From positions 22,692,001 through 22,756,000 of the forward strand of contig CM114271.1 in NCBI GenBank assembly GCA_050084515.1: a DNA stretch of 64,000 bases, given 5' to 3'. Every line of letters starts with the position of its first letter. The stretch's first letter is position 1. Both the position numbers and the translations under genes were made by a program. Below the pieces are notes generated by a model. That model ran no database searches. It saw only the letters and a list, made by a program, of their open reading frames with translations, and had not been told where the DNA came from. This document shows, in pieces, positions 177-64,000 of the stretch. The DNA comes from Blasia pusilla (lineage: Eukaryota).

Positions 177-679
177 GGGAGGAGAACATCACTTGAAATA
201 CTTTGTGTTTGAAGAGAGAAGAGAGGCAAGAGAAGGCAAAATTTCATTTTGGGAGAAGGAAATTTTACTCTGAGTTCAGTGGGTGCAAATTTCAAGTGGA
301 GCTTTGATGGTGATAAAACTTTGGTGGCGTTTTTAAGGGCTTTTCGGTCGATTCAGCCGTCAGCGTCCACGTCGGCTACTACGATGCCCAAGTTTGGTTC
401 TAGCCGTCTTGTAGAGCTCATTGAGAGCTTTGCGATGCATCCAAAATGCTCGATTCTGGCACTCTAAGCTCCTGCAGCAGCAATTTCAGTGTAGGAAAGT
501 ACAATTAGTGAAGAAAAGTTGTGAAGTTTGCTCTCTACAAGCCAATTTCGACTAGTTCTTTCATACATTTGATCAATTTTGGCAAATTTCACGTCGATTT
601 TTGTGTAGGAGTGGTCTATGCTTCAATTGGAGCAGTAGAAAGCCTGAAATTACATTTTTTGTGAGTGAAATCGTTTATC

Positions 680-3600: not shown

Positions 3601-4830
3601 GAGATTACATCACATGGACGTCAAGAATGCCTTCTTGAATGGAGATCTATACGAGGAGGTGTATATGACTCAACCACTTGGATACCACCATCCCAAGTTT
3701 CCATTTCACGTATGCAGGTTGAAGAAAGCTCTATACGGGCTCAAACAAGCTCCAAGAGCTTGGTATGGCAAGATTACATACGTCTTACAAGAGTTGGGTT
3801 TTAGGGTATGTGATTCTGACTCCTCGTTATATGTCGTAAGAGGACAATATCATATAGTTCTCATTGTGTTGTATGTTGACAATCTCTTGATTACTGGGAG
3901 TACTGAAGAAATGGTACAACAAGTCAAGCTTAAGTTACAAGCAGAATTTGATATGAAGGACTTGAGAGAACTCAAGTACTTCCTTGGTATTGAGTTTATC
4001 AAAGTTGGAGAGAGTATGTGGTCACTACAACGACAATATGCTCTTCATATACTTTCAAAATATGGTATGACGGCTTGTAAGCCAATCTCTACACCGTTTG
4101 ACCATAGCGTGAAGCTAAGAGTGGATGAAGGAGAGCTGCTTGCAGATTCTAATATCTACTTGCGCATGGTTGGAAGTTTGATCTATCTAACTATAACCAG
4201 ATCAGATTTGAGCTATGTTGTTGGCCTAGTGAGCCAGTTTATGCAAGCACCTCGAAAACCTCACCTTGATGTTGTGAGGAGGATTATGCGGTATGTGAAA
4301 TTCTCTATTCAATTCGGGCTTCAATTTGAACATTCTCCAAGTTTTCAATTACAAGGATTCACAGATGATGATTGGGCATGAAGCGTTTCTGATCGACACT
4401 CCACATCTGCTTATTCATTTACTTTCGGAAGCGCAACTATAATTTGGGCTTCAAAGAAGCAACCTACAGTTGCTTTATCTTTAACAGAGGCTGAGTACAG
4501 AGGAGCAACCAATGCAGCATGTGAGGCGGTGTGGCTTCATCAATTACTTGTTGAGATTGGTGTTAGTAATTTAGGACCTAGTGTAATATATGCAAAAAAT
4601 ATTAGTAGCATCAAGCTTGCTAATAACTATGCGTTTCATGCTCGTACAAAGCATGTTAAGGTGCACTATCATTTTATCAGAAGAAAGTGCTTGCAGGAGA
4701 AATTGATCTTGTATATATAGGTTCAGATCAGCAAATTGCTCACATCTTTACAAAGGAATTGTCTAGATATAAGTTTGAGATGTTTAGAAAGGATTTACGC
4801 GTTAGAGATATCGATATGAGCTTGAGGGGG
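680..4830 (+). pseudogene. Copia gag-pol polyprotein with premature stops and frameshifts
   Basis: Gag (NYNVWKFRMK), decayed zinc knuckle, protease WYIDSGASNHM (~1680), GAG-pre-integrase WHKRIGH, integrase FIDEFSR...TPQQNGVAERKN, RT KARLVAKG...DVKNAFLNG...LYVDN, RNase H remnant. Stops at 1037, 1364, 2126, 2591, 3509 and 4379. Confidence 0.95.
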
Positions 4831-5355
<525 letters not shown>

Positions 5356-18603: not shown

Positions 18604-21600
18604 ATGTCTTCCTTTGAGATTAATGGTTCCGGCCAAGGCCAAGAGACCGAGCGTGAGCAGCTCAATCGGGTTGACGAAAAGCCCGTCAACTATCGCAAAA
18701 GAAACTATCCTTTGACGCAATGGGAGCTTGCGGCTGTTGTCTGCGTGTTTGCTGGTTTTGCGTTGGCGCTTTCAAGTATTTACCTGACAATGCCGACGGT
18801 GGATTATCAGGTTCTTAAGCTTCCCCGTAACGTGGATGAAGTGCGGTTGCTCACGTAAGGATGCCCTCTCTTCTTGGTCGTGTCTGTGTCCTTAAACCTA
18901 ACTCTTCCTTGGACTGAGTATAATCTCTTCTTTCATATTACAGAGGGGTTCTCTTGGCAATCCTGTCATTTCTCTACCAAAGGGGATGTGGCTCGTTGTT
19001 TTGGGGCTTTATGTCGGAGACACGCGATGGAAAGTTTTGGAACGCTAGGGTTTTCTGGTTGTAGCGAGGCAACTTGTGGACCAAAGCGTTGTCTCTGAGT
19101 TTCTTAAAATCTTGCAATTGGAAACAATATCTCACGTCCACTGTTGCGATCTGTTGTAACTTTCTTCTGATCATTAAGCCCTTTTTTTAAGTAGTGCATA
19201 CCTTTTTGTAAATTACCGTTCTATTTGCGTGCACAAAAAAGTGCGCTACTGTCCACCACTCGCGATCGAACAACCTTCACTGACATCCATTTTACTAAAC
19301 CCATTTTTGTTTGGCTGTGGAGTAGATCCTGACGTAGGCAAGACATCTAGTTTTCTTAAGGAGGAAGAGGGAGATTATCAATTTAACTGAACATGGCATC
19401 AACGAGAGCTAATTATCATTGAAGGCGTGAGAATTGAAAGATAGAGGGAGGACAACGCTGGTCACATCCTGAGAGCTCCACTTGTAAGAGCACATGTATG
19501 CTCCCAGCCACGTGAAGGTCGATAGAGGAGCATCTGCTTTCTAATAAACGAATTGTGGTCCAGCAATCCCTGTTAACACTTTACCCCACACAGTATCCCT
19601 ATCCTCTGTAGAAGAAATGTCTTGATTTAGATAAGAAGTTTATAAATGATTCCTTCTCCTACATTTGGAGCACCACAGAGAAGTTTGGGTCAGGTTCTCA
19701 TGTGTCCCACCAATCACCAACTTCCACCCCTCGTCCCCCAGAGGAGCACTCTATGATTTATTGGCTTGTGCTTGGACCACCACAATAGTGAGGAAAGGAA
19801 GGCTTTCAATTTAAAGTCATCTTCTGTGATGTCTCCAAGAATTCAAAATCCTCATAGACCTAAGCATCAGATGATCCTGGTCAAATTAACCCTGCATCAT
19901 TCCAGGAACTCTTCGATATCTAACACTCTGCTATTATGCAACCATGGTCTAGGAATCACAGTTCTAAATGATCAGCAGACTTCTGCCAAATATTTTCCCC
20001 CGTCTCTTCATCTTGTTTTCAGGGTAGTGAGTGAATCATCATCTGTCAAATCATAGTGTTGCAAGAGTTCATGATTATTCTGGGAATGGAGTGACAGTGG
20101 CTTACTCTTGGGACACAAGGAATGTAGGCAATCACTCATACTCAAAGGCTTGCCTGAAGAAATGGATTTTTCTCTTTGATGTTGTGATGAATATGAGCTT
20201 CTTTGGTTGTTTTCTTTCTTTTCTCATGGTCACTCATTGCACTTATGGATGTGCAGTGAATATATCTCCGCCTATGCAAAGGATTACACACTGCAGGTGG
20301 TACTGGGATACTTTGTAACGTATGTTTTCATGCAAACCTTCATGATCCCTGGAACTATTTTCATGTCACTAACAGCGGGGGCTTTGTTTGGAGTATCAAG
20401 AGGTCTTGTTCTGGTTGTAGTTACAGCAACAGCTGGTGCTTCCTCGTGCTTTTTCCTTTCTAAGCTGGTTGGAAGGCCAATTGCGTACTGGCTGTGGCCA
20501 GAAAAGTTGGGCTTCTTCAGTGCAGAGGTCTTTCTCTCTCTCTGTCTCTTACCACAACCATTTTGCTGTTCATCTTAAGAATTATGTTTGCATTGCATGT
20601 TTCACACCACTTCTGCTTTGTCAAGCAATCCGTGTAGGACTATACAATCTAATCTGTCATGTTTTCCCTGATAGCCCTTTCCAAACCCCCAGATTCCACA
20701 TTACATTTTGGTTTTAGAGTGCTGGCTCTATTGGTTCAGACACGTTTTTCAGTCCTTAGACCTCCAAAACTGAGATCATGTCTGCGTAGCCACTGTGTAG
20801 TGGTGTCTCTTTTGAAAGATCTCCGGTTCTGAAAGTTATTAGGGTTTAGGAATGCATGGGTGTGTCCTTGAAATCGGAGAACTGGTGTGGCACTTGAGAG
20901 CTCGTTTTTTTCTCCTCCACCCATCTCACTCAAGAGGGGTGGGTCTGTCATCCTAAGACCATGATGCTGCAAGTGTACAGATTACATTTTCACTTCTTCC
21001 CGTAGAGTTTGGGTAGAACTGAATAGGTGGCAAACTGACTGTTGCACTTTATCTTAGCTCACAAAATTGGACTCAAAGGGAAGTCATATTGGGTCAGTCC
21101 TGGGTTGATTCCATACCGTTTATGCAAATAGGAAGTTCTGTTGCGTGGACTATATCTTTGTGGGTGCAGAGCTCCTTTCAGAGATTGACCATGTTTCAGA
21201 TGCTATGATGAAAGGTTGGACTTTGATCGTAAATTTTCTCGTTTGGGTTAAGGTTGGGCTGGAATCTATGTACCAATGGGAGGATTGCTTCTTCTGGGTG
21301 TTCGTCCCAGCTCTGACATGTGTCTATTGAAAAATATATTTTTACATTGTGACCCATTTTAGTGTAATAAAGAAAGCCTCGGAGTCATTAAAAGAGGGAT
21401 TGTGCATAGCATGGACACCTTACTAGTTATCCTTGTCTGCAAAAGCAAGGAAGAAAGCTTCTAGGAATACAAAATACGGCGATCGCCAACATTCGTCCAA
21501 ACCTGAGTGTTGTGTATCTACTCTCTCCATTAGTCTCAGATTCTACTTAGAATTTTACAAACGTGGTGGCTTCTGCTTGATAATTGTCTGGATATTGTCA

Positions 21601-22913
21601 ACTCAGACCCCTACTGTACAATTCAGAGCATTAGATTGCTCCTTTTAGGTTTTTATGAGGGAAGAGAGTATGTGTTAGTGATTTGCCCAATCCAGCAGTT
21701 GTAACCAGTCAAACAGGCCTTGGAACAGTAAACCGACTAACTCTAGCCTTTCATGTTTCCTTATTGTTCTTTTCATGGATTGCAGGTTGCCAAAAGGAAG
21801 AAGTCTTTGCTAAACTATATGCTTTTTCTGAGGATTACGCCGACGCTTCCTAACACGTTCATCAATGTTGCATCCCCTATTGTTGATGTCCCCTACCAAA
21901 TATTCTTCTTGGGAACTTTCTTTGGTCTTGTTCCTGCAGCTTTTGTGACAGTTAGGGTAAGAACCCTCTCCAGTTTCCTTTTGGTTTCAAAAGTCTTTTG
22001 CGGAATTTTTCTGTGTCATCACGGCTTTTAAATAGAGATATTTCACATCTTCTGTAATATTGTCTTAAGAAATCAAATAAAGGATTGTGGAGTCCCAATT
22101 TACAGTTCCTTCCATGTCACTGAAGGCACAATTTAGGCAGAGCATGTAATTATATGAGAGTGTTATCTTCAAGGAGGCACCTATTGGTATTAGAATGCAG
22201 AGACTGCACTTCATGAGGATGGTGGTGTTCATTTTAGTCCATGGAACAAGGGGAAACTACATTTATTCTCCAAAATTGTTTGCAGTAAGGGGTCAGAGAC
22301 TGTTATGATGAAGTAGTGCCTCTCGTAACCTTTTGATCAAAGAACCCTGTAGTTAGAGACTGTACTAAGATCTGTTTTTTCCTGACAACCATGCGCAGGT
22401 AGAGTCTACTCATTATGTAGTGCCTGCCATAGCCTTGCAGCCATAGACCCAAATGTGAGCCGTCTGATCCCAGGGACAGGGACACAGATTGTAGCATAAA
22501 GCCTGAGTTTTCAAGTATTTGATTACTCTGTGCTCTCTTTGGAGGGACATAGATTCCAGATCAGCTTAGCCATGTCATGACCCTTATTCCATGTGCTTTC
22601 ACAGACACGACCAAGATCAGATTTTGTGGGGGTTGGTTCATATGTCGCAATGGATGCACAGTTTAAGTGTCCATGTGTTTTGTCCTCAGGAATGCTTTGT
22701 GCAACTCTAAATGTTTTTGGATGGTAAAGTTGATTATTTCCCATGTTTGTACAGGCTGGATTGGCTCTCAACGACTTGAACTCTGTGACTGATCTGTACG
22801 ATGCAAAGACTCTGGGAGCGCTGTTTCTAATTGGTCTGGTCTCCGTTGTGCCTACTTGGGCTGAAAAGTTAAGATCTAGACCATCTCGACAACGTGGTCT
22901 TCATACTTCATAA
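18604..22913 (+). CDS. VTT/DedA-domain (SNARE-associated Golgi, TMEM41/TVP38-like) membrane protein, 283 aa; exons 18604-18854, 20257-20527, 21786-21956, 22755-22913
   Basis: All three introns are GT-AG and the frame is kept (852 nt including TAA). Motifs: LKLPRNVDEVR, YVFMQTFMIPGTIFMSLTAGALFG, TAGASSCFFLSKLVGRP, YMLFLRITPTLPNTFINVASPIVDVPY, AGLALNDLNSVTDLYD. Confidence 0.93.
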
Positions 22914-45512: not shown

Positions 45513-48500
45513 TGTCGTAGGAAATGAATGATGTACAAGGTAGGGTGGTAATAGTGGCATTACTCTATCTCCATTCTTCTAAGAGGAGACTTAGCTTGTA
45601 TGGCTTTAGAGACCGAGACCCATCCCACAATGGCATGAAGGTTATTATGTGAGAAAACAAAAAGTGATGAAATCAGTCAAAACTTTACAAAACTTGGAGG
45701 TACAAAGTGGCCTAGTCCGTCCATGCGCTCAAAAAAGAGCTTTGATGGAACCGAAAATGGAGATAACTTGACATACGAGAATGTGCTATTGCTGCGGCTC
45801 CCGACTATTTCACTACTCGGGAAATTAGGGTTTTTTACCTATTTTTCTAAGTTTCCATTAATAGAATTTTTTTTCACTATCCACACCCTCTATTGCATCA
45901 GGGTGCCCCGCACCCTGATGCAATATAGGGTTAGATAATCCTAGTAACGCTACTCCATAAACCACCTAGGTCATATTACTATGACTCCTTCGAAGTCCAA
46001 GTCGGAACCATCAATCTAGGCTTGTCCTCATACAAGGGGGCCGATCAGATTAATGATGCTCAGAGAAGTGGATGTTGAGAATCCAACATCCCCCTCAATA
46101 TCCACTCTCATGTGGACTATTGTCTTGGACCAATGCCAAGACCCTTCAGATGTCGGTGAAGCTAATCTCTGCTCAAAGCTTTCGTGAAGATGTCACCACG
46201 GTTATCCTCTATCGGAAAATAGACTAACTTCAAAAGCTCTCTCTTGATCAACTCACAAAGAAAATGAAACTGGATCTCTATGTGTTTCGTACGAGCATGA
46301 AACACATGATTATGTGCTATGGAAATGCAACTTTGATTGTCACACCACATTACAGTAGCACTTTCTGGTGCTTTTCCTATGTCCATCTCAATCATACTGC
46401 TTCACAAAAAGCATAACAAGCCGCCTTGTACTCTGCCTTGGTAGAAGAAAGAGCCACCGTAGGTTGCTTCTTTCTAACCCATGACACCATACCTGATCTT
46501 GCCAAGAAGCAATAACCCGAAACTCATCTCCGAGAATCTGAATCTCCTACATAATCCGAGTCACAAAAGGCTATCATTTCCGTCCTTGCTCCATAGGTGA
46601 TGCCGTACTTGATAGTGCCTTTGATGTACTTCAACACATGTATCCCTGCCTTCCAATGGTTCTCACAAGGCTTAATTGAGAACCTACTCAACACTCCCAC
46701 AGCGAAGCTCATGTCTGGTCTAGTGTTGCACAAAAATATCAAACTGCCTACAAGCTTTCTGTACAACTTTTCATCTACCAATGGTGAAACATCCTCCATT
46801 GAGAGTTTCAACTCTACCTCCATTGACGAGACCACTACCTTACACTCGATCATTCCGAACGCTTTCAAGACTTCTCTAGCATACTTTTGCTGAGAGAGAA
46901 AAACATAATCTAATTGTTGCCAAATTTCTAGCCCTATAAAGTAGTGCAAAAGACCTAAATCTGACTTTTCAAACTCAGATTTCAACACTCCCTTTATTTC
47001 CTCTATTTTCTTACTGTGACCTCCTGTGATGATCAGATCATCCACATACAGGATTATCAATATTAACATCCCATCTTTGCAAAACACATACGAATTTGCT
47101 TCTTACGGACTCTTGATGAGACCCTTCTCTCGGAAGAATGTATCTATTCGTTGATACCATACCCTTGGGGCTTGCTTCAACCCATACAATGCTCGATGAA
47201 GCAAACACACTTTCTCTTCTGATCTGGGCGTCTCAAAACTTGGTGGTTGAGATACATACACCTCCTCCTTGAGACTCCCGTTCAAAAAGGCAGACTTCAC
47301 ATCATATTGGTATACATGCCAACGTCTTGTTCCTGCCACGGCTAGAACAATTCGAATGGTTGTCATCCTTGCAGTAGGAGCAAAAGTCTCATAGTAGTCA
47401 AAACCTTCAATATGTGGACATCCTTGTGCAACCAACCTTGTTTTGAATTTATCCAATGTACCGTCCGACTTGTACTTGGTCTTGTACACCGACTTGGTGC
47501 GTATTATCTTCTTGTCCTTTGGCTTCTCAACCAAAGTCCAAGTTTCATTTCTTTGAATAACATCCATCTCCATATGCATGGCCTCTCTCCATTGAGGATG
47601 AGAAAGGGCCTCATCCAAGCATGATGGCTCTTCCACCTTCAAGACCTCTGTCATCAAGGCGATGTTGACAAGATGTGCGAAAGCTCTATTCTCCTCCTCT
47701 AGTCTCTTAGATCTCCTTGGATGTGTAATAACTTCATTAATTGGTGGTAGATCCTAACCATCCTAGAGCTACTTTATCCACTTAGGATATAACGACCGTA
47801 ATGGAAGAGCATGTTCATCTTTGTAATCATCACCAAATTCTTCTTCTTGATGATTTGGTGTAAACATTGGTGGTGTGCTCTGATGGGTTGTCTCTTCGTT
47901 TGATGATAATGTGGACGGACCACTGATATCTGCCACTTGACGAGATTGTTCCTGGAATACCACATCACGACTCACAAGCATCTTCTTTGCCTCAGGAGAC
48001 CATAGGCGATAAGCTTTAGACTCATCACTATATCCCATAAAGATGCACTTCCTGCTCTTGGACTCTAACTTGGTCCTGGATGGTTCAGGAATATGTACAA
48101 AGCATTCACTACCAAAAGTCCTGAAATGTTGGAGTGATGGTACCTTACGTGAGTATGATTGATGAGGAGTCATGCCTTGCATTAACTTGGTAGCACTTCT
48201 ATTTAGAATGTAAACGACAGTATTAACAGCTTCAGCCCAAAATCCTTTTGTCAAACCTTTTGCTTTCATCATACATCTTGCCATCTCCATCACTGTACGG
48301 TTTTGACGCTCAACAATTCCATTTTGTTGTGGTGTATATGCTGTGGTTAACTGTTGCTTGATTCCATGCTCTCCCAAATATTTGTTGAATTTTGTTGATA
48401 AGAATCCTCCTCCTCCATGACTGCGAAGCTTCTGTACCTTCTTTCCTGTCTCATTCTCAACCAACTTGTGCCATACTTTAAATTTTCCAAAAGCACTTGC

Positions 48501-49240
48501 CTTATCATGAAGGAAATATACCCACATCTTCCTACTATAATCGTCGTCAACTAAAAAGAAGTAGGAAGAACCACCTAATGCCACTGTTCTCATTTTACCA
48601 CAGAGGTCAGCATGAATCAGCTCTAGAGGAGCCTTTGCTCTTTTGCTAGACTCTTGTGGAAATGGTTTTCGGTGTTGCTTGCCAATCATACAAGCTTCAC
48701 ATGTATCCGACACTTCATAAATTATTGGTAAATCACCAACCATGCTAGATTTCTGCATCTGACTTAGTAAGGGAAAGCTTAAGTGGCCAAATCTTTCATG
48801 CCACAACTTACTGCTACTAAGATCTGTACCTACATTTGTCGTGAAAGCATATAACTCGTAGATATTTCCATGTCGTATACCTTCACCCACTACTTTCCCA
48901 TTGACATCCTCAATAAGAGCTCCAGTTTTCTTGAAACAAACTTCTAAGTCATGATCATATAATACTGGTACTGAAAATCAAATTTTGCTTCAACTCTAGT
49001 ACGTACAATACATTTGTTAACTTATTTTCATCTCCTTTTTGTGTGACTAAAGAAATTGTGCCTTTTCCTTCTACATGGCACTTTGCATTATTCCCAACCG
49101 TAACAACGATGGGCTTTTATGGAGGCTGTAAGGAGCTATACCAATCCTTATGATTAGTCATATGCTTAGATGCTCCACTATTGAGCACTCATGCATCTTC
49201 ACTCTTTGACTTAGTGGAATGTTTTGCTCGTGTGCAAAAC
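45513..49240 (-). mobile_element. Ty1/Copia element, second family, 5'-truncated (PR-INT-RT-RH plus 3' LTR)
   Basis: Minus strand: *VLNSGASKHMT (~49170), LWHERFGH, LELIHADLCG, DDYSRKMW, TPQQNGIVERQNRT, KTRLVAQG, DVKSAFLNG, LYVDD, CDNQS...HARTKHIEI. PPT GAGGGGGA precedes LTR start TGTTGG at 46088. The distal LTR end (~45513) is uncertain, and no gag or 5' LTR was found. Confidence 0.9.
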
Positions 49241-49970: not shown

Positions 49971-50839
49971 CAAGGTTGCACGAAAAACAGACATGCCCAA
50001 CGGGTCCCCTACCCGGGTTTTTTTCAATACTCCAATAGCAACTCCGCCAAACCCCATTCTAGAGGAGAGTATAGGATGTTTGTCAAGTATGAATAGGGAT
50101 GGAGCACGAGTTGTGCCCGATTTCCTTTCCTTAACTCGTACCACGTCAAGATTCTCTTTGTAGATGGGCACTGGTTTACTCGCTATCTAGTTTATCACTT
50201 TGGGAAAGCGTTTATGAACCAAGTCATGCAATCTCCAACTCCGGTGATTCTTCCTATAGTCACGTACGGAAGGATATGGGATTGTACTTTGTATGTCCTT
50301 ATATAGCAATCCATGGACGTCAATAGGTTTGCTCAAGTAGGGTTTTACACCAGTTGTGCTATTTTCGTTGTGTACAAACGTAAAATAGTTTATAGGGACT
50401 TCATAGTTAGGAATTTTGGAGTTCCATGTTATGAAGAAGTGATCGCCTCGGCACTACCATTCGTGATTCTTGTCGTGAGAGAATGGAGGATTTATATAAT
50501 AATTCTGTGTTGAAAAGGGAGAACTTCTTATAGAGTTTGACTTCCAGAAACCACATCTGCTGTAGCTAGAAGGTCCGTCCTTACTCGAAGAAAGATTCTC
50601 GACACGACATCGGGATGGCTAAGCCTGCACCGATTTTATGGTCCGCGCGTAGCGAAGTAGCCTGCTAGCCCGCGACACGCCCGTAGGGCATTCTGGGCTC
50701 TGAGCCCGCCCTACAGACCTAGTTGTGAGCCTGCAGCGGGTTGGTGCGGGCTCGGCCAGGCTGGGTCTACGCTACGGGCTCAGATGCGGGATGCGGGTCC
50801 CAAGTACTCGGGTGGCATGTCCGTTTCCGTGCAACCTTG
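49971..50839. mobile_element. hAT-like non-autonomous element (~870 bp) about 1 kb upstream of the GH71 gene
   Basis: TIRs CAAGGTTGCACGAAAAACAGACATGCC and GGCATGTCCGTTTCCGTGCAACCTTG. The 8-bp flanks CCTACTGG and CTTACAAG match at only 5/8. Confidence 0.65.
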
Positions 50840-51787
50840 CTTACAAGTATTAGATTAAATCAAGTAATGTTAAAAATATAATTTATATGAGTTGTAACAA
50901 GCTTGTAATCCTTGTTATCAATTTTTATCAATAAACTTACTCGAATCATTGAAAAAAATTATTAAATTCGACTTTCCTCTATATAGTCATTATAGAAGAA
51001 AATGAGAATGATATGACTAGCATGAGGGTAAAATTTTATGACTTGCTTTTCAAAATGTGTTTATCCAGAAAATTTCAAAAAGATAAGCTTAAATTTAGTA
51101 GTAATGAAGACTTTTAATTCAACTTTTTCCAGAAAAAAGGAGGAAAGGTCTATTTCTTAACCTAAAGCTAATGTTTATTTGGGCGCGGTAAGGACTGATC
51201 CGATCCTTCCTCCATAAAGTCATATTTGTAAGTCGGGTATCGTTTTGTGGCCAATGACGTTGAGATATTTTTTATTATATCAGAAAAGTATGAAACTATT
51301 ATGCTTTTCATTTTCTCGCGTCTTGTAGATTCATTAAAGATAGAATGAAATATTTTAAAATTAAATAGAATTGAATCAGAAATGAAGGGTCAAGAGCAAA
51401 GATGCACTTCGATAAAAACGAGTGATGGAAAACCCATCGGAAGTACAAAAGAGGGGGACTCAAAAAGTCAAAACCTGAAGGCCACAACACGACCAGAAAA
51501 GAAGGGTCAAGCATAACACAGTCGACTCGCTGTAAACGGGGCTTACTTGGAGTGCCATCGCACGGTCAGTATTTCTCCGGATACCTACGATCTTCCGCGA
51601 TCCTCTACGTTCCGCGGACGGCGCGGGCATAGTTCGTTACAGTGACGTGGTTCGAACTCAATACTTTTGAAAGTGTCGTCTTCACCACACAGTATGTCAG
51701 TGAGGGTCACTATCCGCTGCGCTTTCTCTATCCGATGGATCTTTTCTTCATGTTCTGCCCCGGTCGGGCCGAGGGTCGGGAACGCCC

Positions 51788-51795
51788 TATATATA
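51788..51795 (+). promoter_or_regulatory. Putative TATA box of the GH71 gene
   Basis: CCCTATATATAG about 100 bp upstream of ATG 51896, followed by a GA-rich leader. Confidence 0.6.
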
Positions 51796-51895
51796 GACCT
51801 ATGCTAGTCTCATTGTCTTCTCAAGACCTGAGGGAGTTTCACTGTCGTAGTGGGAGAGTACTCGCGGGAGGAGAGAAAGAGGAGGAGACGCAGTC

Positions 51896-53353
51896 ATGAA
51901 GGTCTTGTTCTTTGCAGCCGTGTGGCTGTGCGCCGCGATACTCAGTCACGAAGTATTATTCGCAGCTGCTCAGACCCCGAAGTTGGTGTTCGCTCACTAC
52001 CTCATCTATGCGCAAGATTCGATCGACACTTACAAGCAGGAAATTCAGCTTGCCCAAAGCAAGGGTATCGATGCATTCGCACTCAACACGAACGTGTGGA
52101 GACAGTCGCTGGCAGACAATATGTATGAGGCTGCCAGCGAGCTGGGCACCGGATTCAAGCTGTTCTTCTCGGCTGATATTCACGTGGAGGATAGCACGGG
52201 TCTTAGGCTTTCGCCAACTGATATCGTGACCATGCTTACGAGGTACAGAACGCACCCGAATCAGCTGACTTACCAAGGCAAGTCGTTCTTCACTTCGTGG
52301 CTCGGCAATGACAATGGCTACTGGCAGTACTACAACTACGCGAGCGCAGTTGCGGCTTGGCAAGATATTTTCAACCAAGCCGGTGGCAAGAGCCTGTACT
52401 TCTTCATTCCATTCTTCCCCACCGACGGATCCTACTACGGAGTGAAGGGCATCGTGTATGATACGTTTCAGTCCACCGTCGATGGATACTTTGGATGGGA
52501 CAGCACTGCATGGAACTACTTGAACGGTAATTTTAGCGTTCCTGGGATCTCGCCCGGGGATCAGGACTCTCTTCAAGTCTCCAAAGACTTGGGTAAGACT
52601 TATATGGCCGGTGTCAGTCCGTGGTTCTTCAAGAACCTTGGAGGCCAATCTTGCTGCGATTCCTCTTGCTTCGCAACGACCAGGGACGGCCAGAGTGCAT
52701 GTCCGTGCCAAGTGAAGGGGGACTACCAAGGCTCTGGCCTGTGGCTCCAGAAATGGGGTCAAATAATTAGCAACCCTCCCCCGTTGGTGGAGATTATCAC
52801 CTGGAATGACTGGATCGAGGGCCACTACGTCGCACCGGGGTATAGCGTGGGCGCTAGCCAGGCTTCCTCCAGTGGCGCGATAGTCGATGTTGCCAGTTTC
52901 CCTCATCAGGCATTCCTGGAGCTGGGCAAGTACTATATCGATTGGTACAAGAATGGTCAGGAGCCAATCGTGTCCCAGGATTGCTTGTTCCTATTCTACT
53001 ACCCACAGAGCCATAACGTCACGATCAGTAGCGTGCCTTGCGACATACTGCATCGCCCGCAGTTGGTCGATGATGCCGTTTATGCAGCGGTAATTCTCTC
53101 TCCGGGCCCTTCGGCCTCAATTACAATCAACACAGGTGGGCCTGGTGGCACGTCTCAGACCTTCACAGCCGTGCAGGGTGTCTCGGTGTTCGGCATCGGA
53201 TTTCAGGAAGGTGTTCAGTCCGTAACATATAGCCGAAACTCGCAGACTGTGACGCTTACAGGCGCAAAACTAGTCAGTAATACCGCCCTCACTGAATACG
53301 ACTTCAACGTTTACTCCACCTTCTGCTCTAATGTCGCTAATGGGTGCAGCTAG
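51896..53353 (+). CDS. Secreted glycoside hydrolase family 71 (alpha-1,3-glucanase/mutanase-like), 485 aa, intronless
   Basis: Signal-peptide-like N-terminus ending AAA-Q. GH71 motifs: VFAHY, EIQLAQSKGIDAFALN, FKLFFSAD, FFIPFF, VDGYFGWD, KTYMAGVSPWFF, VEIITWNDWIEGHY, YYIDWYKNG. C-terminal beta-rich domain ends YDFNVY. Confidence 0.92.
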   Translation: MKVLFFAAVWLCAAILSHEVLFAAAQTPKLVFAHYLIYAQDSIDTYKQEIQLAQSKGIDAFALNTNVWRQSLADNMYEAASELGTGFKLFFSADIHVEDSTGLRLSPTDIVTMLTRYRTHPNQLTYQGKSFFTSWLGNDNGYWQYYNYASAVAAWQDIFNQAGGKSLYFFIPFFPTDGSYYGVKGIVYDTFQSTVDGYFGWDSTAWNYLNGNFSVPGISPGDQDSLQVSKDLGKTYMAGVSPWFFKNLGGQSCCDSSCFATTRDGQSACPCQVKGDYQGSGLWLQKWGQIISNPPPLVEIITWNDWIEGHYVAPGYSVGASQASSSGAIVDVASFPHQAFLELGKYYIDWYKNGQEPIVSQDCLFLFYYPQSHNVTISSVPCDILHRPQLVDDAVYAAVILSPGPSASITINTGGPGGTSQTFTAVQGVSVFGIGFQEGVQSVTYSRNSQTVTLTGAKLVSNTALTEYDFNVYSTFCSNVANGCS

Positions 53354-55860
53354 TTATCTATGTCAGTCCACATTCTGCTCCAATTACTAAGGAGCGCTGA
53401 AATAATACCCGACTCGCGCGCAGACGCTTGGGTTTTAAGATAATCGATTCTGTTTAGCTTGCTTATCCAAAAATAAAACTTAGACGTCACTGACGAATAG
53501 TGTGAGCTTTCGCGAATAAACTCAGATGATCTGAGTCAATTTGGTTGAATACAATCCCTACTTCTCACTACACCGAGATTGTGGCTGTTCTCATTTCCGA
53601 TTCTCTACTCTGGAATTTTGCGTCGAATGTAACAGAGCCAATTCTCATCTCTCCCTCAGTTACACGTACATCGCGGACCCGGCAGTTGTTCGAATCACTT
53701 CGAAGTCATTCCATAGAACTATTCGACATGCGCATTGGACATTTTCACGGCGAACGTTCAAGTGTGTCCATATTCTTGAATAAGGATGACAAGGATTTCT
53801 ACGTTCTAATACAAATCTGCGAGTACCGAGCGCAAGTTAAAGCTTGGAATTATCAAGTCGTGGAATTCTAGTACGTAAGATATGTTTAGCAGTTTAGAAC
53901 GGATACCGGAAAGCCGATAGGAAGGTTGCAAGTACGCACGTACACTACATGAGCTCGATAATCGAAGGGTTCGGTCTTTTGGATTCATCTGATTTTTCAT
54001 CACTGGTGCAGCAAGCAGCAAGCCACTTCTAGCGACCTCCGACCTGGCCTCCAAATGCATGGCATCGGCTGATTCTCAGGGATATTCAGTTCAACTTCCT
54101 CTTATATACATGACATTGCCCTACTCTGGACTCTGGAGAAGTAGGTCGAATTGACTTGGGGAAGCTGGGACTTGTATAGCGTACACGGCGTACGGTAATC
54201 CAGTAGCTCTCCAAAAGCTTGTTTTTCAGGGCTCCTTTCCCATGCATGCACGTCTTACCGTTCATAAATCGCATAATCGCAGGCCAGAGCGTGAAGGATT
54301 CGAATGATCTGACGATGTTCCCCGATCTTGACCATCCCCCCCATCGCAATTACCTCGTGCTGAAGGCGAGGTTGCCTCACCCTCCGACCTTGAATTCAAA
54401 CGCCATGAAGAAGGCATGAATCTTCATAAATCGGGACCGTTCCTCAATATCCCGAGACTGCCGCGTTCGTTCGGCTAATTCCTGGGCAGGTTGATCCTCC
54501 AGTGAAAGATTGAAACCTTGTGCCCAATGCATACTGTGCACCTGACGCATTGCAAGGGCCTTCTCATATTACGCGTTGCCAAGCTCCAGGCGGGTCAACG
54601 TTGCACATGAGATACAACGTGCAGTTGCGTGCTCAATTGCCTCGAAGAGTTTACCTAGTCTAAATCAGGGAAACAGCCACCTGAATCATTCAAGTTCTGA
54701 ATGAGGACAGCGGACACGACTAACAGTGACCACCTCCTCATTGGCTCTTGTAGTTTACAGAGTTTCAACCATGGAGAAATCAACTCAACCACAGGCTCAG
54801 GCGCAACAAGACAAGAATTACTGCTACGTACACCCTTCCATTGATTCCCGGAGGTGCGCGATCGTGACAACATTGAGCCATGCGAAGATAAGTTGACTTT
54901 CGGCCCATCTTTAGATATCGTTTCATGAATTCAAACAATTTGGAATCCGATTGCATGGTTTAACACGAGGGAAACCGACACAGACCCGTCCGTAGACGCG
55001 ATACGATGGAACTGGATACCACTAGGATCGGTGTTGGTGATCTCCAATCGTTTGAATTTCGTGAAACAACATCTAAATCTTTTCGGGCAACGTTGAGTAG
55101 GGTCGAAGGTTGAGTCGATTCCAACCATGGCTCGTCATGATCGCGCACCTCCGGGAATCCGTGGATGGGCCTCATCTACGATCTGCAGTCCCGACATTTC
55201 ATGTCGTTTTAGATGGCAGGATTCGTGTACGAGCCCCGTGACTACTGGAAGTCTGGACACGGAGAGGACAAACAACACGAGAGTGGGAAAAGAACCAGAC
55301 GGGACCGAAGGCCCTAAACTGCCACGGGACTGCTCACTGGGGCAGCGGGATAAATGCCCCATATCTGCGCACGAAGCCCATACTTTGCCGCGGCTTCGCA
55401 ATAAAGCGAAGCCTAGGCTAGGCCCTATCGGCAGGCGCCTCGGTGAAGGCGCGCTTCGGAGCCCCGGATCGGGAAAACGGTGGGGGGCGGTGGCTGGCGG
55501 ATATCGGCTGGGCCGACGCCAGCGACCTAGGCGGACGGCTTCACCAACTCCGTGAAACATGGGACGGATTTAGGGACGGGTTTAGGCGGACGGATCTAGG
55601 GTAACGACGGACTACGACGGAATGTAGGGACGGATTTAGGCGGACGGAATTAGGGTGGGGACGGGTGTTTAGGGCGCTCTGTTGTGTTTCGCTGATGGTG
55701 GCAGTGTTTTGCGAAGGTTTTGCGTTTAGGGTGGTTTCCGAAGGTTTTGCGAAGGTTTTGCGTTTAGGGTGGCGCTCCGAAGTGTCGTTCGATGTGTGTT
55801 CGGTGTACTCGCACTTGGTTTACAGCGTTGGGCTTTTGCCTGATCGGGTTTAGGGTGTTC

Positions 55861-57130
55861 AGCGATTCGGGGTTGGGCTCTTGTGTTCGTGTGTAGAGAT
55901 TTACAGTGTTGAGCGATTCGGGGTTGGGCTCTTGCAGGATCTTGCCCTCGTGAAAGGTGTTTCGGGTGTTGAAGGCGCTCAGAGTGTTTCGCTGATGGTG
56001 GCGGTGTTTTGCGGCTCTAGGTGTTTCGCCGTGTTAGGTGTGTAGAGGTTTCTGATGTTCAGCGATTCGGGGTTGGGCTCTTGCAGGATCTTGCTCGTGA
56101 AAGGTGTTTCCGGGTGTTGAGGGGCGCTCGGAGTGTTTCACGATTGTGATGGCGGAGCTCGGTGGTTTGCCCTCGCGAAGTTCCATTCTTCCGAGGCCTT
56201 GAGTGGTTTCTTGTTTTGCATTGTCTACTGCGATTGCACGCACGAGTATGTACCGTGAAATTTGTGTCGCCATGTGTGTACTTGAAGTATTCGTGTGTTT
56301 TGTTTTCGATTCCTCATTGTTGCCGCCCTCCCCTTCGCATTCTCACGCCGTTCAACTTGATCTGCGATTGCAATGGCGAGCTCGGTGGTTTTGCGCCTCG
56401 CGAGGTTCCATTCTTCTAAGGCCTTGAGTGGTTATTTTTTTCATTGTCTACGCAAAGTGCACGATGAGTATGTACCGTATTATTTGTGTCGCCATGTGTG
56501 TACTTGAAGTATTCGAGTGTTTTGTTTCTTGATTCCTCATTGTTGCCGCCCTCCCTTCGCATTCTCACGCCAGTTCAACTTGATATGATGGATTGTGCTC
56601 TCGTGAAAGGTGTTTCGTTTACAGTGGCAGTGTTCCGCAATTCGGGAAAACGGTGCTTCCGGGTGTTTAGCGATGTGTTGTGGGTGTGGGCTTGATGGTT
56701 GCGGTGTTTAGCGATTCGGTGTTTAGGTATTGGTCTTCATTCGATTCTTGTAGGGCTTTTGGTGGATCGTGCTCTCGTGCGAACAAACAAACAGTTCGCT
56801 AGTGGGTTTAGGGTTTAGAATTGGAAACTAGCTCAAATTTTCTGGTGATCGGTTTGGTTTGGTTTAGTTAGGCCCAGTGGCAGTGCGGTCGTAGCCTGAG
56901 AGAGGAAGAAGGTAAGTTTGGGCTCCGAAGTGTCTCGCTTCGTGTTTGAAGGTGGCAGTGTTGTGGGTGTGGACTTGACGGTGGTGGCGGTGTTTAGGTG
57001 TTGGGTTTGATTGTCGTAGGGCTTTTGTTGGATCGCTTTGCGGTGTTATCGTGCACTCTTGGGAAAAGGGGTCAATTCGCTAGTGGGTTTAGGGTTAGAA
57101 TTGAAACTAGCTCGAATTGTCTCAGATCGG
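55861..57130 (+). repeat. Subterminal tandem duplications inside the MULE left arm
   Basis: AGCGATTCGGGGTTGGGCTCTTG at 55861, 55912 and 56061. A ~225-bp duplication spans ~56155-56375 and ~56378-56585. The blocks at ~56680-56860 and ~56960-57130 are also related. Confidence 0.85.
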
Positions 57131-57847
57131 TTTGGCGCCGCAACAAAGGCGGGTGAAACATGAAGTCACTTAACGGTGAGAACTGAGTTGTGTGGACGCG
57201 AGAGTAACAAGGTAAGTTTGATTCATTGTGTATCGTGACCGAGCTGGGTTTCTGTTTAAAATTTTCCGGGTTGGGTTATGGCATTTGTGTCTGCATTTGT
57301 TTATTGTTGACAGTCAGGATTTGAAGGTGGCAGCGCACTTTTTGGCAAAGTCGTGAACTAAAATTGGAACACCCATACTTTGCGGTGCCGACTGTGCGTG
57401 AGTTGATCCGACTTGATGGGGCAGGGAGGAGAGCGGAGTCAATGTGGGATCGGAGTAAATGGGATATCGTGACTTATAGTAATTTCATTCGGGGTCCTTG
57501 ATGTCTAGTTCCATCTAGTGACGCTCCATTCCTGCGTGACGATTCTCCTCGTGATCAGGTACATTAGTTGTATGTTTGGATTCCTTTCTATTGGTTATTG
57601 CTTCATTGCAAAGAATTACAAAGTAAACAAGGTTACTGACATGCTTTTTATGACCACATCACGCAGGTTCGGGCTAGCGTACGAATTGTGTAACTCCTAC
57701 CGAATTTCCATCCTCGGAGCTCTTAGGTTCTGAAAGCGAAGGAGCTCTTAGGTTCTGAATGCGAACTTGACCTTTCGGTCGGTAGTAGAGTAGGTTGGAT
57801 ATAGGGGTTTACATACATTACGGGTACTACTGTCGCCTGTTGTTATC

Positions 57848-59099: not shown

Positions 59100-61618
59100 C
59101 AGAGCAACTTGTTAGGTCCTGGGGGATGCTCTAGAATGCCATGTGAACTCTGCAGCTTATATTTGAATGCAGCTCATGTGCGACTTTTCTTGAATGCCAA
59201 CGTAACAATTCATTGCTTACATTGTTGGTTATGTTCATACATAGGCAAAATTCTACAAGGGAGAGGTGGAGAAAGAGCAGGTTGCTCTTGAGTTTAGGAA
59301 GATGTTTGCTGCATTCATGGGCAAGAGCCCACCCTTTCCTGAGAAGCAAGCCTACCAAACCTCGCTATGGCGGGCAAGTACTGTCCACCTCTAGTAAATT
59401 TAGAAACAAACATCCTCCATATCACAATTCCTGACATCCTATGCAAGAGTCCCTAGATGCGGTGTGGAATTCAGCGATCCATTTACCTATTCACGTGCAT
59501 GCTGCATCTTTTGAATCATAGTCCACCACATCATGCCATACATATGGCTTTGAGATGCTCTTCACCTGAGCACATTTCCTTGCGTTCATGGACTCGAATG
59601 TGACATAGTTGTCAGGAATATCATTTGCTCGCCTAATAGCCATTAGCATGACTTTTTGAATAGCTTGATTCCTCACCATGCCTTCCCTCTTCAAAAAGGA
59701 CAAGTACCAGAAGAAATCTTCAATTTCTCCAGTGAGTATTTGCACAAGCCATATAAGCTTCTGGTTGGCTTAGTGGGCATCTTTGGATGTGAGGTGCATC
59801 TTTAGAGTGTGATGCCACCTTTCTATGGCAGCGTTAGTATCTTGGTTGGATCGTGCATGCTTGCGATATCCTTTAGCCCAAGTAACGATCTTTGGATGCC
59901 AATAGTTGGCGTAGTATTTTAGAAAGTGACGTTCCGTTCCTATCCACTTGCGCATAAATCTATAAGAGGCATCAACCGGATCTGCGACACCAATAGCTAA
60001 TTGTTACGCATCTGGACCATAACAACATACAAGATACAAAAATTTGAAGGTTACAGATTGGAAGTACCTTCATCACTTGAATACATAACTCCGCCCAGGT
60101 CTCTATTCATGTTTGCCTTTGTGATTGGACATCGCAAACGCTGATGCAAATTCTTTAGCCAATTCTTTCAAACATACCATAGACACAGGTCTATAGGAAC
60201 ACCAGGAAATACTTCCTTTATAGCAGATTGTTCCTCTTTTGAGTCATCAACTATGAAGCATGAAGGTTTCCACTCTGTCGTGCATATGTTTTGGTCCTTT
60301 TTCAACATGTTCCTATTTGCCCAATCCTTAACATGCGATAAGGTAGCAACCAAGTCCTTGTGTTGATGTCGTTGTAGGATAGCCTTGACCAATGGCAACC
60401 CATTAAGAAACTTATCGAACCCCAACAAAGTGAATAATTGGTACTGTGAACACAAGAATTGCATGATTCAGAACTGTGAATATAAAGATTTTGACGCATG
60501 AATGGGAAGAAATATATCATTATTGTAGAGGGAAACAAAGCATAAGCACTTGCTAAGTGAAGGTCTACATCTGAAAGATTGGGCAACAAGCTAAAACAAA
60601 TTATTATTCGAAACAATATCTGATCTAAAAAAAGCAAGTGAAGAAGCAATGTCAACTAACCTCATAAGTGTTTGTGCCATGGGTGGCATCCATTGAGATA
60701 GCTCCGCCATTTCCAAGTTCCAAGAGATTTTGAAGCATCCAAGGTGTCGAAAATACTAGGGTAAAGGGTTGGCCCAACTTGGAAATAGCCTCATTGTAGT
60801 AGATGATATTTTCGGGGTGTGATTGTACCCAATGTTGGATTGCAAAGTGGCGTCGTCCGTTCCATCATAGCCCCCTTTCGCCTTCGCATGCAAAGTGCTT
60901 GATATTGAGAATATCTTGAGGCTTTAGCATTGCATCTCTAGCCCAAGCATGTTGGTGGTTGGGGTTATCACGAATATGTTCACGAACCCACCTCCTATGC
61001 TCTTTCATGATATTCAAAGGGCTCACGTTCACTGCAATAAGCGCTCAACAAAGTCCCTACAACAAGGACTTAATTTTGGGGCTACAATTGCATTTGCAAT
61101 ATTTCTTTGTCTTGTCTAGGTCACCATGGCATATTTGACCCGCCTTGTCCACATGTTTAGAGTGCAAGTGCCTCAACATGCAAAAACCAGGGACGGTCTA
61201 TCGACTTTTTATGACAAAGTGGAATTGGCATCCACGGCCTTGAGAAAGCCCAAGATTTTTACTTTGGCTTTCTGGTCTACTACCCTTACCCCACATTAGC
61301 CCGACGGTTGGGGTGAAAGACCTCTTCGGCAAAGAGGTCTAGACATCTTTCCTGAAATCTTGGGCCCCCATCGCACACCAATACCGAATGGTGATATTTG
61401 TGTGTGCAGATTTATCATTTTGCTTTTTGAAAAGTAAATGCCTGGAAATGCGGTCTATGTTCTTCACCTTGTATGAAATCCTCTAGCCTATCAGCTGGAA
61501 TCCATGCTTCTTTTCTTTGACCATACCAATTCAGGTGTTCACTTATAAAAGGGCCAGGTAGGGGATTTTGAATGGAGTCACATTCAAATGCACCATAGGA
61601 CTTGGAGTATTTGGTCAT
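59100..61618 (-). pseudogene. MULE DDE transposase (plant SWIM-zinc-finger/MULE type), intron-containing, inactivated
   Basis: IQNPLPG...AWIPADRLEDFIQGE, RGCQFHFVIK, KHVDKAGQICHG, ISMDATHGTNTYE, then a GT-AG intron at 60660-60444, then YQLFTLLGFD...GLPLV, CFIVDD, LCLWYV*, QDTNAAIERWHHTLK. D-D-E are present, but there are stops, frameshifts and CxxH changed to CxxY. The 3' end is approximate. Confidence 0.88.
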
Positions 61619-62325: not shown

Positions 62326-63227
62326 TTGTAATTCTCCATTAGCGATGATAATGAAGCAAATGTCGGGTTTCTCTGTTGCTCCACGACGTTCATTACGGCT
62401 AATCGACTGACGTTTAGGGCTAATCCACTTTTGCCGGATGGAATCCATTTTAACTCCGTCCGATGGCAGGGAACGGACGTTTTGAAGTCCGTTCCCTAAA
62501 GTCCGTCCCATGTTTCACGGAGTTGGTGAAGCCGTCCGCCTAGGTCGCTGGCGTCGGCCCAGCCGATATCCGCCAGCCAGCCACCGTTTTCCCGATCAAC
62601 AGCGCGCCTTCACCGAGGCGCCTGCAGATAGGGCCTAGCCTAGGCTTCGCTTTATTGCGAAGCCGCGGCAAAGCATGGGCTTCGGGGAGAGGGACCCCGG
62701 GCGGCGGGCCCCGGCACTCTAGGAACACCCAGAGTCTGGATCGAGATTGGTCCATGTACAGGGGTCTCTGTTTGTACATAAAGAGTTGAACTTTGCGTGT
62801 GTCCGAAACGAAAAGCTATAATCCAAATAGTCCCATGCCCCGTTGCCTCGTTCTTGTGCTGATCAGCACGTTCTTCTTACAGCCAAAAAGTAAGGAGTAG
62901 TACAGGAGTACTAGGGCGGTATCGAATCGGATCACAACGTGAATTGCGGATACCTTTGGTGACCATCTCCACAAAGTCCTCCGGACTTCCGAAAAAGGAG
63001 GCCAGGTTAATCGTACGGTGAGGAGATAGTAAAGACAGTAACCACCTCACTTGTCTAGGGACGCTACGCCCGTCGAACTTGCGAACACCCTCGACAGAAA
63101 TTCCGAATCGATCCAACATTTCAATCGACCCCGGAGTTTTATGCCCTGATTAAATTTCAGCATGCGATTCTACACACAAACTTACTTCTGAATTCCACAT
63201 GAGGAAGGCATTTGTTTGCCAAGCAGA

Positions 63228-63809
63228 TTACGGTATCCTGAAGCTGAATACGGTATCCTTCACTCCGAAGTAGGATCCATCGGTAGGGAAGAATGGAATG
63301 AAGAAGTACAAGCTCTTGCCACCGGCTTGGTTGAAAATGTCGTTCCAGGCCTCAAGTGAGCTTCTGTAATTGTAGAACTGCCAGTAGCCATCATCATTGC
63401 CGAGCCACGAGGTGAAGAATGACTTGCCTCGGTACGTGAGCTGATTCGGATGTGTTCTATACCTGGTCAGCATCGTTACGATCTCTGAAGGCGATAGTCG
63501 AAGACCCGTGCCATCCTCGACATGAATGTCGGCCGAGAAGAAAAGTTTGAAACCGGTGCCCAGCTCGCTCGCAGCCTGATAAATTTTATCTGCCAGCGTC
63601 TGTCTCCACACATTCGTGTTCAGTGCGAATGCGTCGATACCCTTGCTTTGGGCGAGCTGAATTTCCTGCTTGTAAGTATCGATTGAATCCTGCGCATAGA
63701 TGAGGTAGTGAGCGAACACCAACTTCGGGGTCTGAGCAGCTGCGAATGGCGCTACTGAGCTGAGAATTGCGGCACAAAGCCAAATGGATGAGGCGACGAA
63801 ACTCTCCAT
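63228..63809 (-). pseudogene. 3'-truncated GH71 paralog (193 aa), inverted relative to the intact copy
   Basis: Colinear with 51896.. for ~185 aa, with 16 substitutions in the mature part by my count. It then stops before the WNDxxE block, and no 3' half is visible downstream. Confidence 0.9.
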
Positions 63810-64000
63810 GACTGCTTCTCTTACTCTGCTTCTTCAGTTTCGCACAATGAGAGTTCCCAGGCTCCGTGCGCTATAAGCGTTCCTTAACCGGGTCCCACAC
63901 GCACGACAGAAGTTTCATAGGATACAGAAAGCCAACTTTATGCTTATACAGCAGACGCTTGTTGGAAGTAAACTTCGACTTCAACCGTAGTTAGTTCCGG

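Follow-up and report, generated by a model that had tools for sequence, protein, structure and literature searches.

A transcribed GH71 gene in the Blasia pusilla genome belongs to a land-plant clade and probably encodes a secreted alpha-1,3-glucanase

Positions 51896-53353 of a 64,000-nucleotide stretch of the Blasia pusilla genome (contig CM114271.1; the whole stretch is called the window below) hold an open reading frame (ORF) of glycoside hydrolase family 71 (GH71). The locus raises the question of whether such a gene is a microbial acquisition of this one lineage, as the original prediction had it, or an inherited plant gene, and what its product could do for a plant. We consider it probable that the gene is a vertically inherited land-plant GH71 whose product is secreted and acts, most likely as an inverting endo-alpha-1,3-glucanase, on microbial glucan.

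The gene and its transcript

The ORF lies on the plus strand, starts with ATG, ends with TAG and runs through 485 codons plus the stop with zero internal stops; the reading frame itself, the Pfam profile and structure matches together predict a secreted enzyme. To examine its transcription, we mapped two RNA raw-read runs (X17 and X19) and a contig set (X1, from a 2019 study) over positions 50000-55000. In both runs the RNA depth stayed at 120-245 between 51832 and about 53560 and fell to zero in the unique flanks. Ends of RNA molecules clustered at 51832-51836 and at 53555-53560, and the corresponding X1 contig of 1728 nt was identical to 51832-53559 apart from two differences. The first mates of the read pairs were almost exclusively on the minus strand in X17 and X19, and in most stranded libraries this orientation marks plus-strand RNA. 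A TATA box (TATATATA), already noticed in the original prediction, is situated on the plus strand at 51788-51795, about 40 nt 5′ of the RNA 5′ ends. At the other end of the transcript, the hexamer AATAAA at 53515-53520 of the same strand stands 35-45 nt before the RNA 3′ ends. Neither of the two raw-read runs nor the X1 contig contained any splice joint over 51832-53560, and therefore the gene has no intron. The gene is strongly transcribed as an unspliced mRNA of about 1.73 kb from a TATA promoter, with the 5′ end at about 51832 and the 3′ end at about 53555-53560. The transcript was present in runs of three studies, all carrying one species label.

The RNA reads also revealed variation. Compared with the reference, X17 and X19 display five coding differences, namely the fixed changes C363S (52983), P370T (53003), N374S (53016) and A464G (53286) and one synonymous change (52051). 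The N374S replacement abolishes an NVT sequon. All four amino-acid changes fall within the C-terminal third of the protein, in the linker and beta-sandwich part. The X1 contig has C363S too, plus a silent G>T change at 52879.

Family, fold and catalytic residues of the protein

The product is a member of GH71, as judged by a full-length profile match, the DxxE dyad, the neighbouring Trp and the fold. The Pfam profile PF03659 (Glyco_hydro_71), proposed earlier as a check of the family assignment, aligned its positions 1-373 (of 375) to residues 31-452 with an E-value of 6.5e-72 and 242.8 bits, against a cut-off of 34. Agn1p of Schizosaccharomyces pombe (8yfh) was matched with an E-value of 1.5e-33 across residues 31-474. 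Pfam, the AlphaFold model and Foldseek agree on a GH71 domain (residues 31-452, positions 51986-53251 of the plus strand) predicted to consist of a (beta/alpha)8 barrel and a C-terminal beta-sandwich. The model, calculated from an alignment of 45 sequences, reached a pLDDT of 90.9 and a pTM of 0.90. Foldseek ranks 1-6 were all occupied by GH71 structures (Agn1p D237N, Agn1p, and AnGH71C of Aspergillus nidulans with and without ligands) with E-values of 1.7e-32 to 7.5e-30, and the target-normalised TM scores of these six matches were 0.84-0.86, with 0.85-0.86 for 9m6l, 8yfh and 9fnf. GH99 endo-alpha-mannosidases came next in the list, with E-values of about 1e-10.

The predicted catalytic centre is the motif WNDWIE (residues 303-308, positions 52802-52819 of the plus strand), an instance of the WNDxxE motif pointed out in the original prediction. 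By alignment and by the roles known from AnGH71C, its DxxE dyad would comprise D305 as the general base and E308 as the general acid. Of the 45 sequences in the alignment, 90% or more retain these two residues, and W303 and N304 do not vary. W201, within DGYFGW, aligned to Trp185 of AnGH71C (DGAFSW in 9fnf) when the profile alignment was read by eye. According to the 2025 paper on GH71 structures (PMC12394665), the DxxE dyad of AnGH71C consists of Asp265, the general base, and Glu268, the general acid, with Trp185 adjoining it, and Ala at either dyad residue lowers the activity of AnGH71B/C 200-15,000-fold. The position beside the dyad is aromatic, being Trp185 in AnGH71C and Tyr in GH99.

The N-terminus resembles a signal peptide, as the original prediction had stated. 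Residues 3-21 form the sole hydrophobic segment of the protein and the model places a helix at 2-20, so that hydrophobicity points to a probable signal peptide of residues 1-26 (51896-51973, plus strand), presumably cleaved after AAA. The hydrophobicity analysis of the full 485 aa found no further membrane-like segments and no hydrophobic C-terminus.

The alignment also revealed a plant-specific, Cys-rich insertion at residues 249-277 (C253, C254, C258, C269 and C271; positions 52640-52726, plus strand), which follows the strand YMAGVSPWFF. Its pattern, CC..C..C.C, is present in all seven rows of the liverwort group described below, in most gymnosperm rows and in the Selaginella row P0026. It is missing from fungal, bacterial, moss and several lycophyte-like rows, so it is not universal in the plant clan. 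The loop is 33 residues long in the window protein versus about 17 in the fungal enzymes. As it is placed among the loops that follow barrel strands, it may line the substrate cleft.

Relatives and descent

Searching with the protein resulted in 318 matches, whose taxonomy was read from the rows named by organism. The top matches came from Marchantia polymorpha (64% identity), Riccia fluitans (64%) and M. paleacea (61%). A second tier at about 50% comprised Cryptomeria, Taxus, Ginkgo and Araucaria, and a third tier at 42-45% comprised Selaginella, Ceratodon and Diphasiastrum. Among the best 37 of the 318 matches (E <= 2.8e-76), all 19 organism-named rows were non-flowering land plants. Below the plant matches there is a gap down to identities of 33% or less, where fungi, bacteria, an amoeba and a rotifer are found. 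A scan of prokaryote genomes recovered two GH71 loci, one from Armatimonadota (26%) and one from Mucilaginibacter (25%), which were entered in the tree as bacterial rows. Further database look-ups of protein clusters returned large fungal and bacterial GH71 clusters only.

Phylogenies were inferred by FastTree on 249 rows, after sequences shorter than 330 residues had been removed, and by an IQ-TREE quick search under LG+C20 PMSF on 79 chosen rows. FastTree recovered a plant clan of 41 of the 249 rows with a support of 99, inside which the window protein was sister to six liverwort-type rows with a support of 100. IQ-TREE recovered a plant clan of 30 of the 79 rows (support 100) and a seven-row liverwort group including the window protein (support 100), together with a bacterial clan of 20 rows (support 98) and a fungal side of 21 rows with a core clan of 16 (support 99). 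Judged by its sequence, the gene is a member of a land-plant GH71 clade, an old group comprising liverworts, mosses, lycophytes and gymnosperms. Because its nearest relatives are liverworts and both trees nest it in the plant clan, we infer that the gene was inherited in this lineage. If GH71 was transferred into plants at all, the sequences would place that event in a distant ancestor and not in this lineage.

The label 'fungal-type' that the original prediction gave to the gene was not borne out, since a single node of the unrooted tree joins the clans of plants, fungi and bacteria; for the same reason the sister of the plants depends on the root. We also tried to assign a donor and dropped the attempt. 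Plants stand beside fungi in the FastTree drawing and beside bacteria in the midpoint-rooted IQ-TREE, and the three-clan node is the same in both.

The closest neighbours of the plant clan in the IQ-TREE (support 95) are a group of eukaryotic transcript-length sequences, P0133 and its kin, together with P0129. The group of P0133 and P0261-P0268 has the motif GNYKGPGLW in common with the plant clan. If these sequences were from streptophyte algae, plant GH71 would be an algal inheritance.

A second, truncated copy

The duplication proposed in the original prediction was recovered in part. A second copy exists on the minus strand at 63228-63827, but it is a 5′ fragment: by alignment it has an ATG at 63809, covers residues 1-188 and then continues into unrelated sequence and a stop. 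Positions 63827-63257 (minus strand) share 85% nucleotide identity with 51878-52448, which corresponds to 83.5% amino-acid identity over those residues. The two copies, compared over 564 nt, show a synonymous divergence (dS) of 0.64 and a nonsynonymous to synonymous ratio (dN/dS) of 0.14. From the former it follows that the duplication is old, and from the latter that purifying selection acted on the second copy during most of the time since then. The low ratio also speaks for purifying selection on the intact gene. In each run, 12-13 RNA reads bear the 5′ sequence of the second copy, visible as loose ends at 51958; therefore either the second copy or another paralogue that begins in the same way and escaped notice is transcribed at less than one tenth of the level of the first.

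On the 3′ sides of both copies there is a repeat. The 206-bp unit at 55372-55576 (plus strand) is located about 2 kb past the first copy, and its inverted partner at 62493-62684 (minus strand), of 90% identity, about 570 bp past the break in the second. This arrangement of sequences agrees with an inverted segmental duplication after which the second copy lost about 2.4 kb from its interior, the alternative being a dispersed repeat.

Is the gene a recent transfer or an artefact?

A recent origin of the gene, by transfer from a fungus or bacterium into this lineage alone and subsequent duplication, would fit the lack of introns, the G+C content of the gene, which at 52.9% is above its surroundings (0.493 for the bin 52001-54000 and about 0.38-0.43 for the upstream bins), and the mainly fungal and bacterial composition of the family (PMC12394665). 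However, liverwort proteins are the nearest at 61-64% identity and fungal and bacterial matches all remain at 33% or below. Moreover, the phylogeny, which had been suggested together with the claim of acquisition by this lineage, speaks against that claim in two trees, with the window protein nested in the liverwort group (100) within the plant clan (99 and 100), and the protein carries the Cys-rich insertion of the plant clan. We consider such a transfer very improbable and rejected it, the closest relatives being the host's own relatives and not a donor group.

Even less probable, to the point of being negligible, is an assembly artefact in which a microbial contaminant contig was joined to plant DNA. 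The one whole-genome shotgun run at hand, sampled at about 1 in 100, reached a depth of 0-2.4 in the gene and of 0-4.7 in its flanks, too thin to test the joins, and to that extent the artefact keeps some room. Against it, the protein is of the plant type and not microbial, the window contains the diverged second copy at a distance of 10 kb, and the transcript recurs in the three studies that carry one species label. The presence of copia and MULE elements and of a spliced VTT-domain gene on the same sequence speaks against it as well.

Comparison with known GH71 proteins

Whether GH71 had been catalogued in this lineage could not be checked when the original prediction was made; plant GH71 is reported in three papers. 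The genome papers on Torreya grandis (PMC10006428; n=7 in Torreya) and Pinus massoniana (PMC12122422) treat GH71 as an ancient transfer that angiosperms lack, and the Pinus paper places it among horizontally acquired genes tied to defence. According to the GH71 structure paper (PMC12394665), CAZy has two entries from Sitka spruce, and BLAST finds homologues in Taxus, in Cryptomeria and in some mosses and liverworts. Neither the occurrence of GH71 in plants nor its proposed origin by an old transfer is new, as both are already in print. The window gene is a further member of this published plant group, which is also annotated in Marchantia.

Its nearest known relatives are P0001 of M. polymorpha (annotated as glucan endo-1,3-alpha-glucosidase / Mutanase), R1flu_011565 of R. 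fluitans (P0002) and Mapa_001768 of M. paleacea (P0004), which are 470-482 aa long and align over 99-100% of the query at the 61-64% identity given above. They have in common with the window protein the signal-peptide-like N-terminus, the DxxE dyad, the Cys-rich insertion and the membership of one liverwort group. Unlike these and their kin, the window protein branches outside the six other rows of the liverwort group in both trees, and it therefore represents a more distant liverwort-like lineage or an old paralogue. Our literature search found no published assay for the P0001, P0002 and P0004 proteins. Gymnosperm GH71 proteins (Picea sitchensis, Torreya grandis, Cryptomeria, Taxus and Ginkgo) belong to the same plant clan at about 50% identity and have the Cys-rich insertion in most rows. 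Conifers possess multi-copy arrays, such as the tandem array of Cryptomeria, whereas the window has one intact copy and one fragment.

With the characterised enzymes, S. pombe Agn1p (8yfh, 9m6l) and A. nidulans AnGH71C (9fnf-9fnh), the window protein shares the two-domain fold, the DxxE dyad, the neighbouring Trp and the family profile, but the identity is about 25%, and those enzymes remodel the wall of the fungus itself while plants are not known to have such a polymer in their walls. A possible working model for the enzyme is the AGL-rice (Fujikawa et al. 2012, PMC3426526), in which a plant-secreted GH87 alpha-1,3-glucanase strips the fungal mask and sets off a rapid defence; rice secreting this bacterial enzyme withstands three fungi. 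In contrast to the window gene, the AGL gene is a bacterial transgene and not a native one, and its product has a beta-helix fold (PMC12394665) unrelated to that of GH71.

Proposed function and its alternatives

Starting from the sequence, family, modelled fold, catalytic residues, transcription and phylogenetic position of the gene, it is plausible that the product is secreted, that it performs inverting cleavage of an alpha-1,3-linked substrate and that it serves in defence or in dealing with fungal partners. No plant is known to make alpha-1,3-glucan, and so the likely substrate is microbial. Fungal pathogens conceal chitin beneath alpha-1,3-glucan. The signal peptide would direct the protein into the secretory pathway, and since a membrane anchor and a retention signal are lacking, the expected destination is the apoplast or the thallus surface. 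In the predicted inverting reaction, which would take place within the barrel backed by the beta-sandwich, the role of D305 would be to activate water and that of E308 to donate a proton to the leaving group. The substrate would be the outer alpha-1,3-glucan layer of ascomycete or basidiomycete walls, or oligosaccharides derived from it, and its cleavage would lay chitin and beta-glucan bare to other plant enzymes and receptors. Alternatively, the benefit could lie in the control of fungal partners.

Several points weigh against a defensive alpha-1,3-glucanase. Its substrate and activity are predicted by homology to characterised enzymes of about 25% identity, and searches of the literature available to us found no assay, localisation or mutant of any plant GH71. 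The A. nidulans enzymes AnGH71B/C act chiefly on soluble oligosaccharides and minimally on insoluble alpha-1,3-glucan (PMC12394665), so that stripping of the wall cannot be taken for granted. The insertion of Cys-rich sequence after a barrel strand in the plant branch may change the specificity. The signal peptide and the soluble, secreted nature of the product are predicted from hydrophobicity. Four replacement differences versus one silent hint at a looser constraint in the C-terminal third. Finally, the high RNA level may simply be constitutive.

An alternative is a real secreted enzyme with a shifted substrate or role, for instance on an endogenous or an algal or bacterial alpha-glucan or oligosaccharide, in the remodelling of wall or mucilage, or on the glucan of bacterial biofilms. 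The Cys-rich loop beside the catalytic face of the barrel, the preference of AnGH71B/C for oligosaccharides (PMC12394665), the sister family GH99, which cuts alpha-mannosides with the same fold and acidic pair, and the high expression without any known challenge are all in line with it. However, D305, E308, W201 and the WND context are as in alpha-1,3-glucanases and not as in the ExxE of GH99, and plants have no known alpha-1,3-glucan of their own. The polymer is moreover termed nondegradable in plants (PMC3426526). We regard a shifted role as the lesser possibility, unlikely but to be taken seriously. A non-catalytic, lectin-like glucan-binding factor, resembling the kinase-fused relatives described below, is far less credible, as the window protein has D305 and E308 and the Asp is kept in 39 of the 41 plant-clan rows; what speaks for it is the Asn that replaces the catalytic Asp in two kinase-fused relatives of the plant clan.

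Despite the 'nondegradable' view, bryophytes, lycophytes and gymnosperms carry GH71 genes whose products are apparently active and secreted. The intronless liverwort gene is easy to express and to knock out, and it offers a direct test of fungal unmasking by early-diverging plants and of its loss in angiosperms.

Fusions with kinase and TIR-NB-ARC domains

Some relatives combine GH71 with domains of receptors. P0031, a transcript-derived plant-clan protein of 849 aa, contains a signal peptide, GH71 at residues 37-439, a membrane helix at 489-507 and a protein kinase at 557-827, and P0125 has the same layout with the N-terminus cut. Among the 41 rows of the plant clan, these two alone have Asn where the catalytic Asp would stand (WNNW), the same substitution that was made in the crystallised Agn1p D237N (PDB 9m6l). 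In P0121 (Cryptomeria japonica SUGI_1117880), TIR, NB-ARC and winged-helix domains are joined to a C-terminal GH71 with an intact DxxE; it may be an integrated domain of an immune receptor or a merged gene model. No literature pairing Glyco_hydro_71 with a receptor-like kinase was found in our search.

The kinase and TIR-NB-ARC fusions are circumstantial evidence linking plant GH71 to microbe sensing. We put forward, tentatively and with less than even confidence, that non-flowering land plants keep a native system against fungal alpha-1,3-glucan lost by flowering plants, in which active secreted GH71 enzymes would strip the stealth layer, while derived receptor kinases, with GH71 ectodomains deprived of the catalytic Asp, would signal on binding the glucan or fragments of it. 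If true, such a native system would overturn the 'nondegradable in plants' view and help to explain the success of alpha-1,3-glucan masking against angiosperms.

Genomic surroundings

The surroundings of the gene contain plant transposable elements and a spliced VTT gene, in agreement with the original prediction. A Pfam scan of open frames identified degenerate fragments of Ty1/copia pol and gag at 665-4717 and 46165-48977 and a MULE transposase piece at 60171-60467. The VTT-domain gene (VMP1/TMEM41/Tvp38-type) consists of two or more exons; those at 20180-20575 and 21747-22028, separated by about 1.2 kb, match positions 1-54 and 68-118 of the Pfam profile VTT_dom.

A repeat of about 104 bp with a very high copy number is located at 51398-51501, 330-400 bp upstream of the GH71 transcript start. 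Its depth per read direction exceeded 100 in the DNA run, of which about 1 in 100 reads was sampled, and reached about 45-63 in RNA; the flanks of the repeat were many and varied. The Rfam scan of the whole 64,000-nt window, this repeat included, gave zero matches. Just downstream of the GH71 gene, at 55660-57135, the sequence contains direct repeats, in tandem or close together, which belong to several families with unit lengths of about 110-225 bp and 74-92% identity. A long (CA/GT)n microsatellite at about 5060-5330 is visible as poly-HT and poly-CV open frames.

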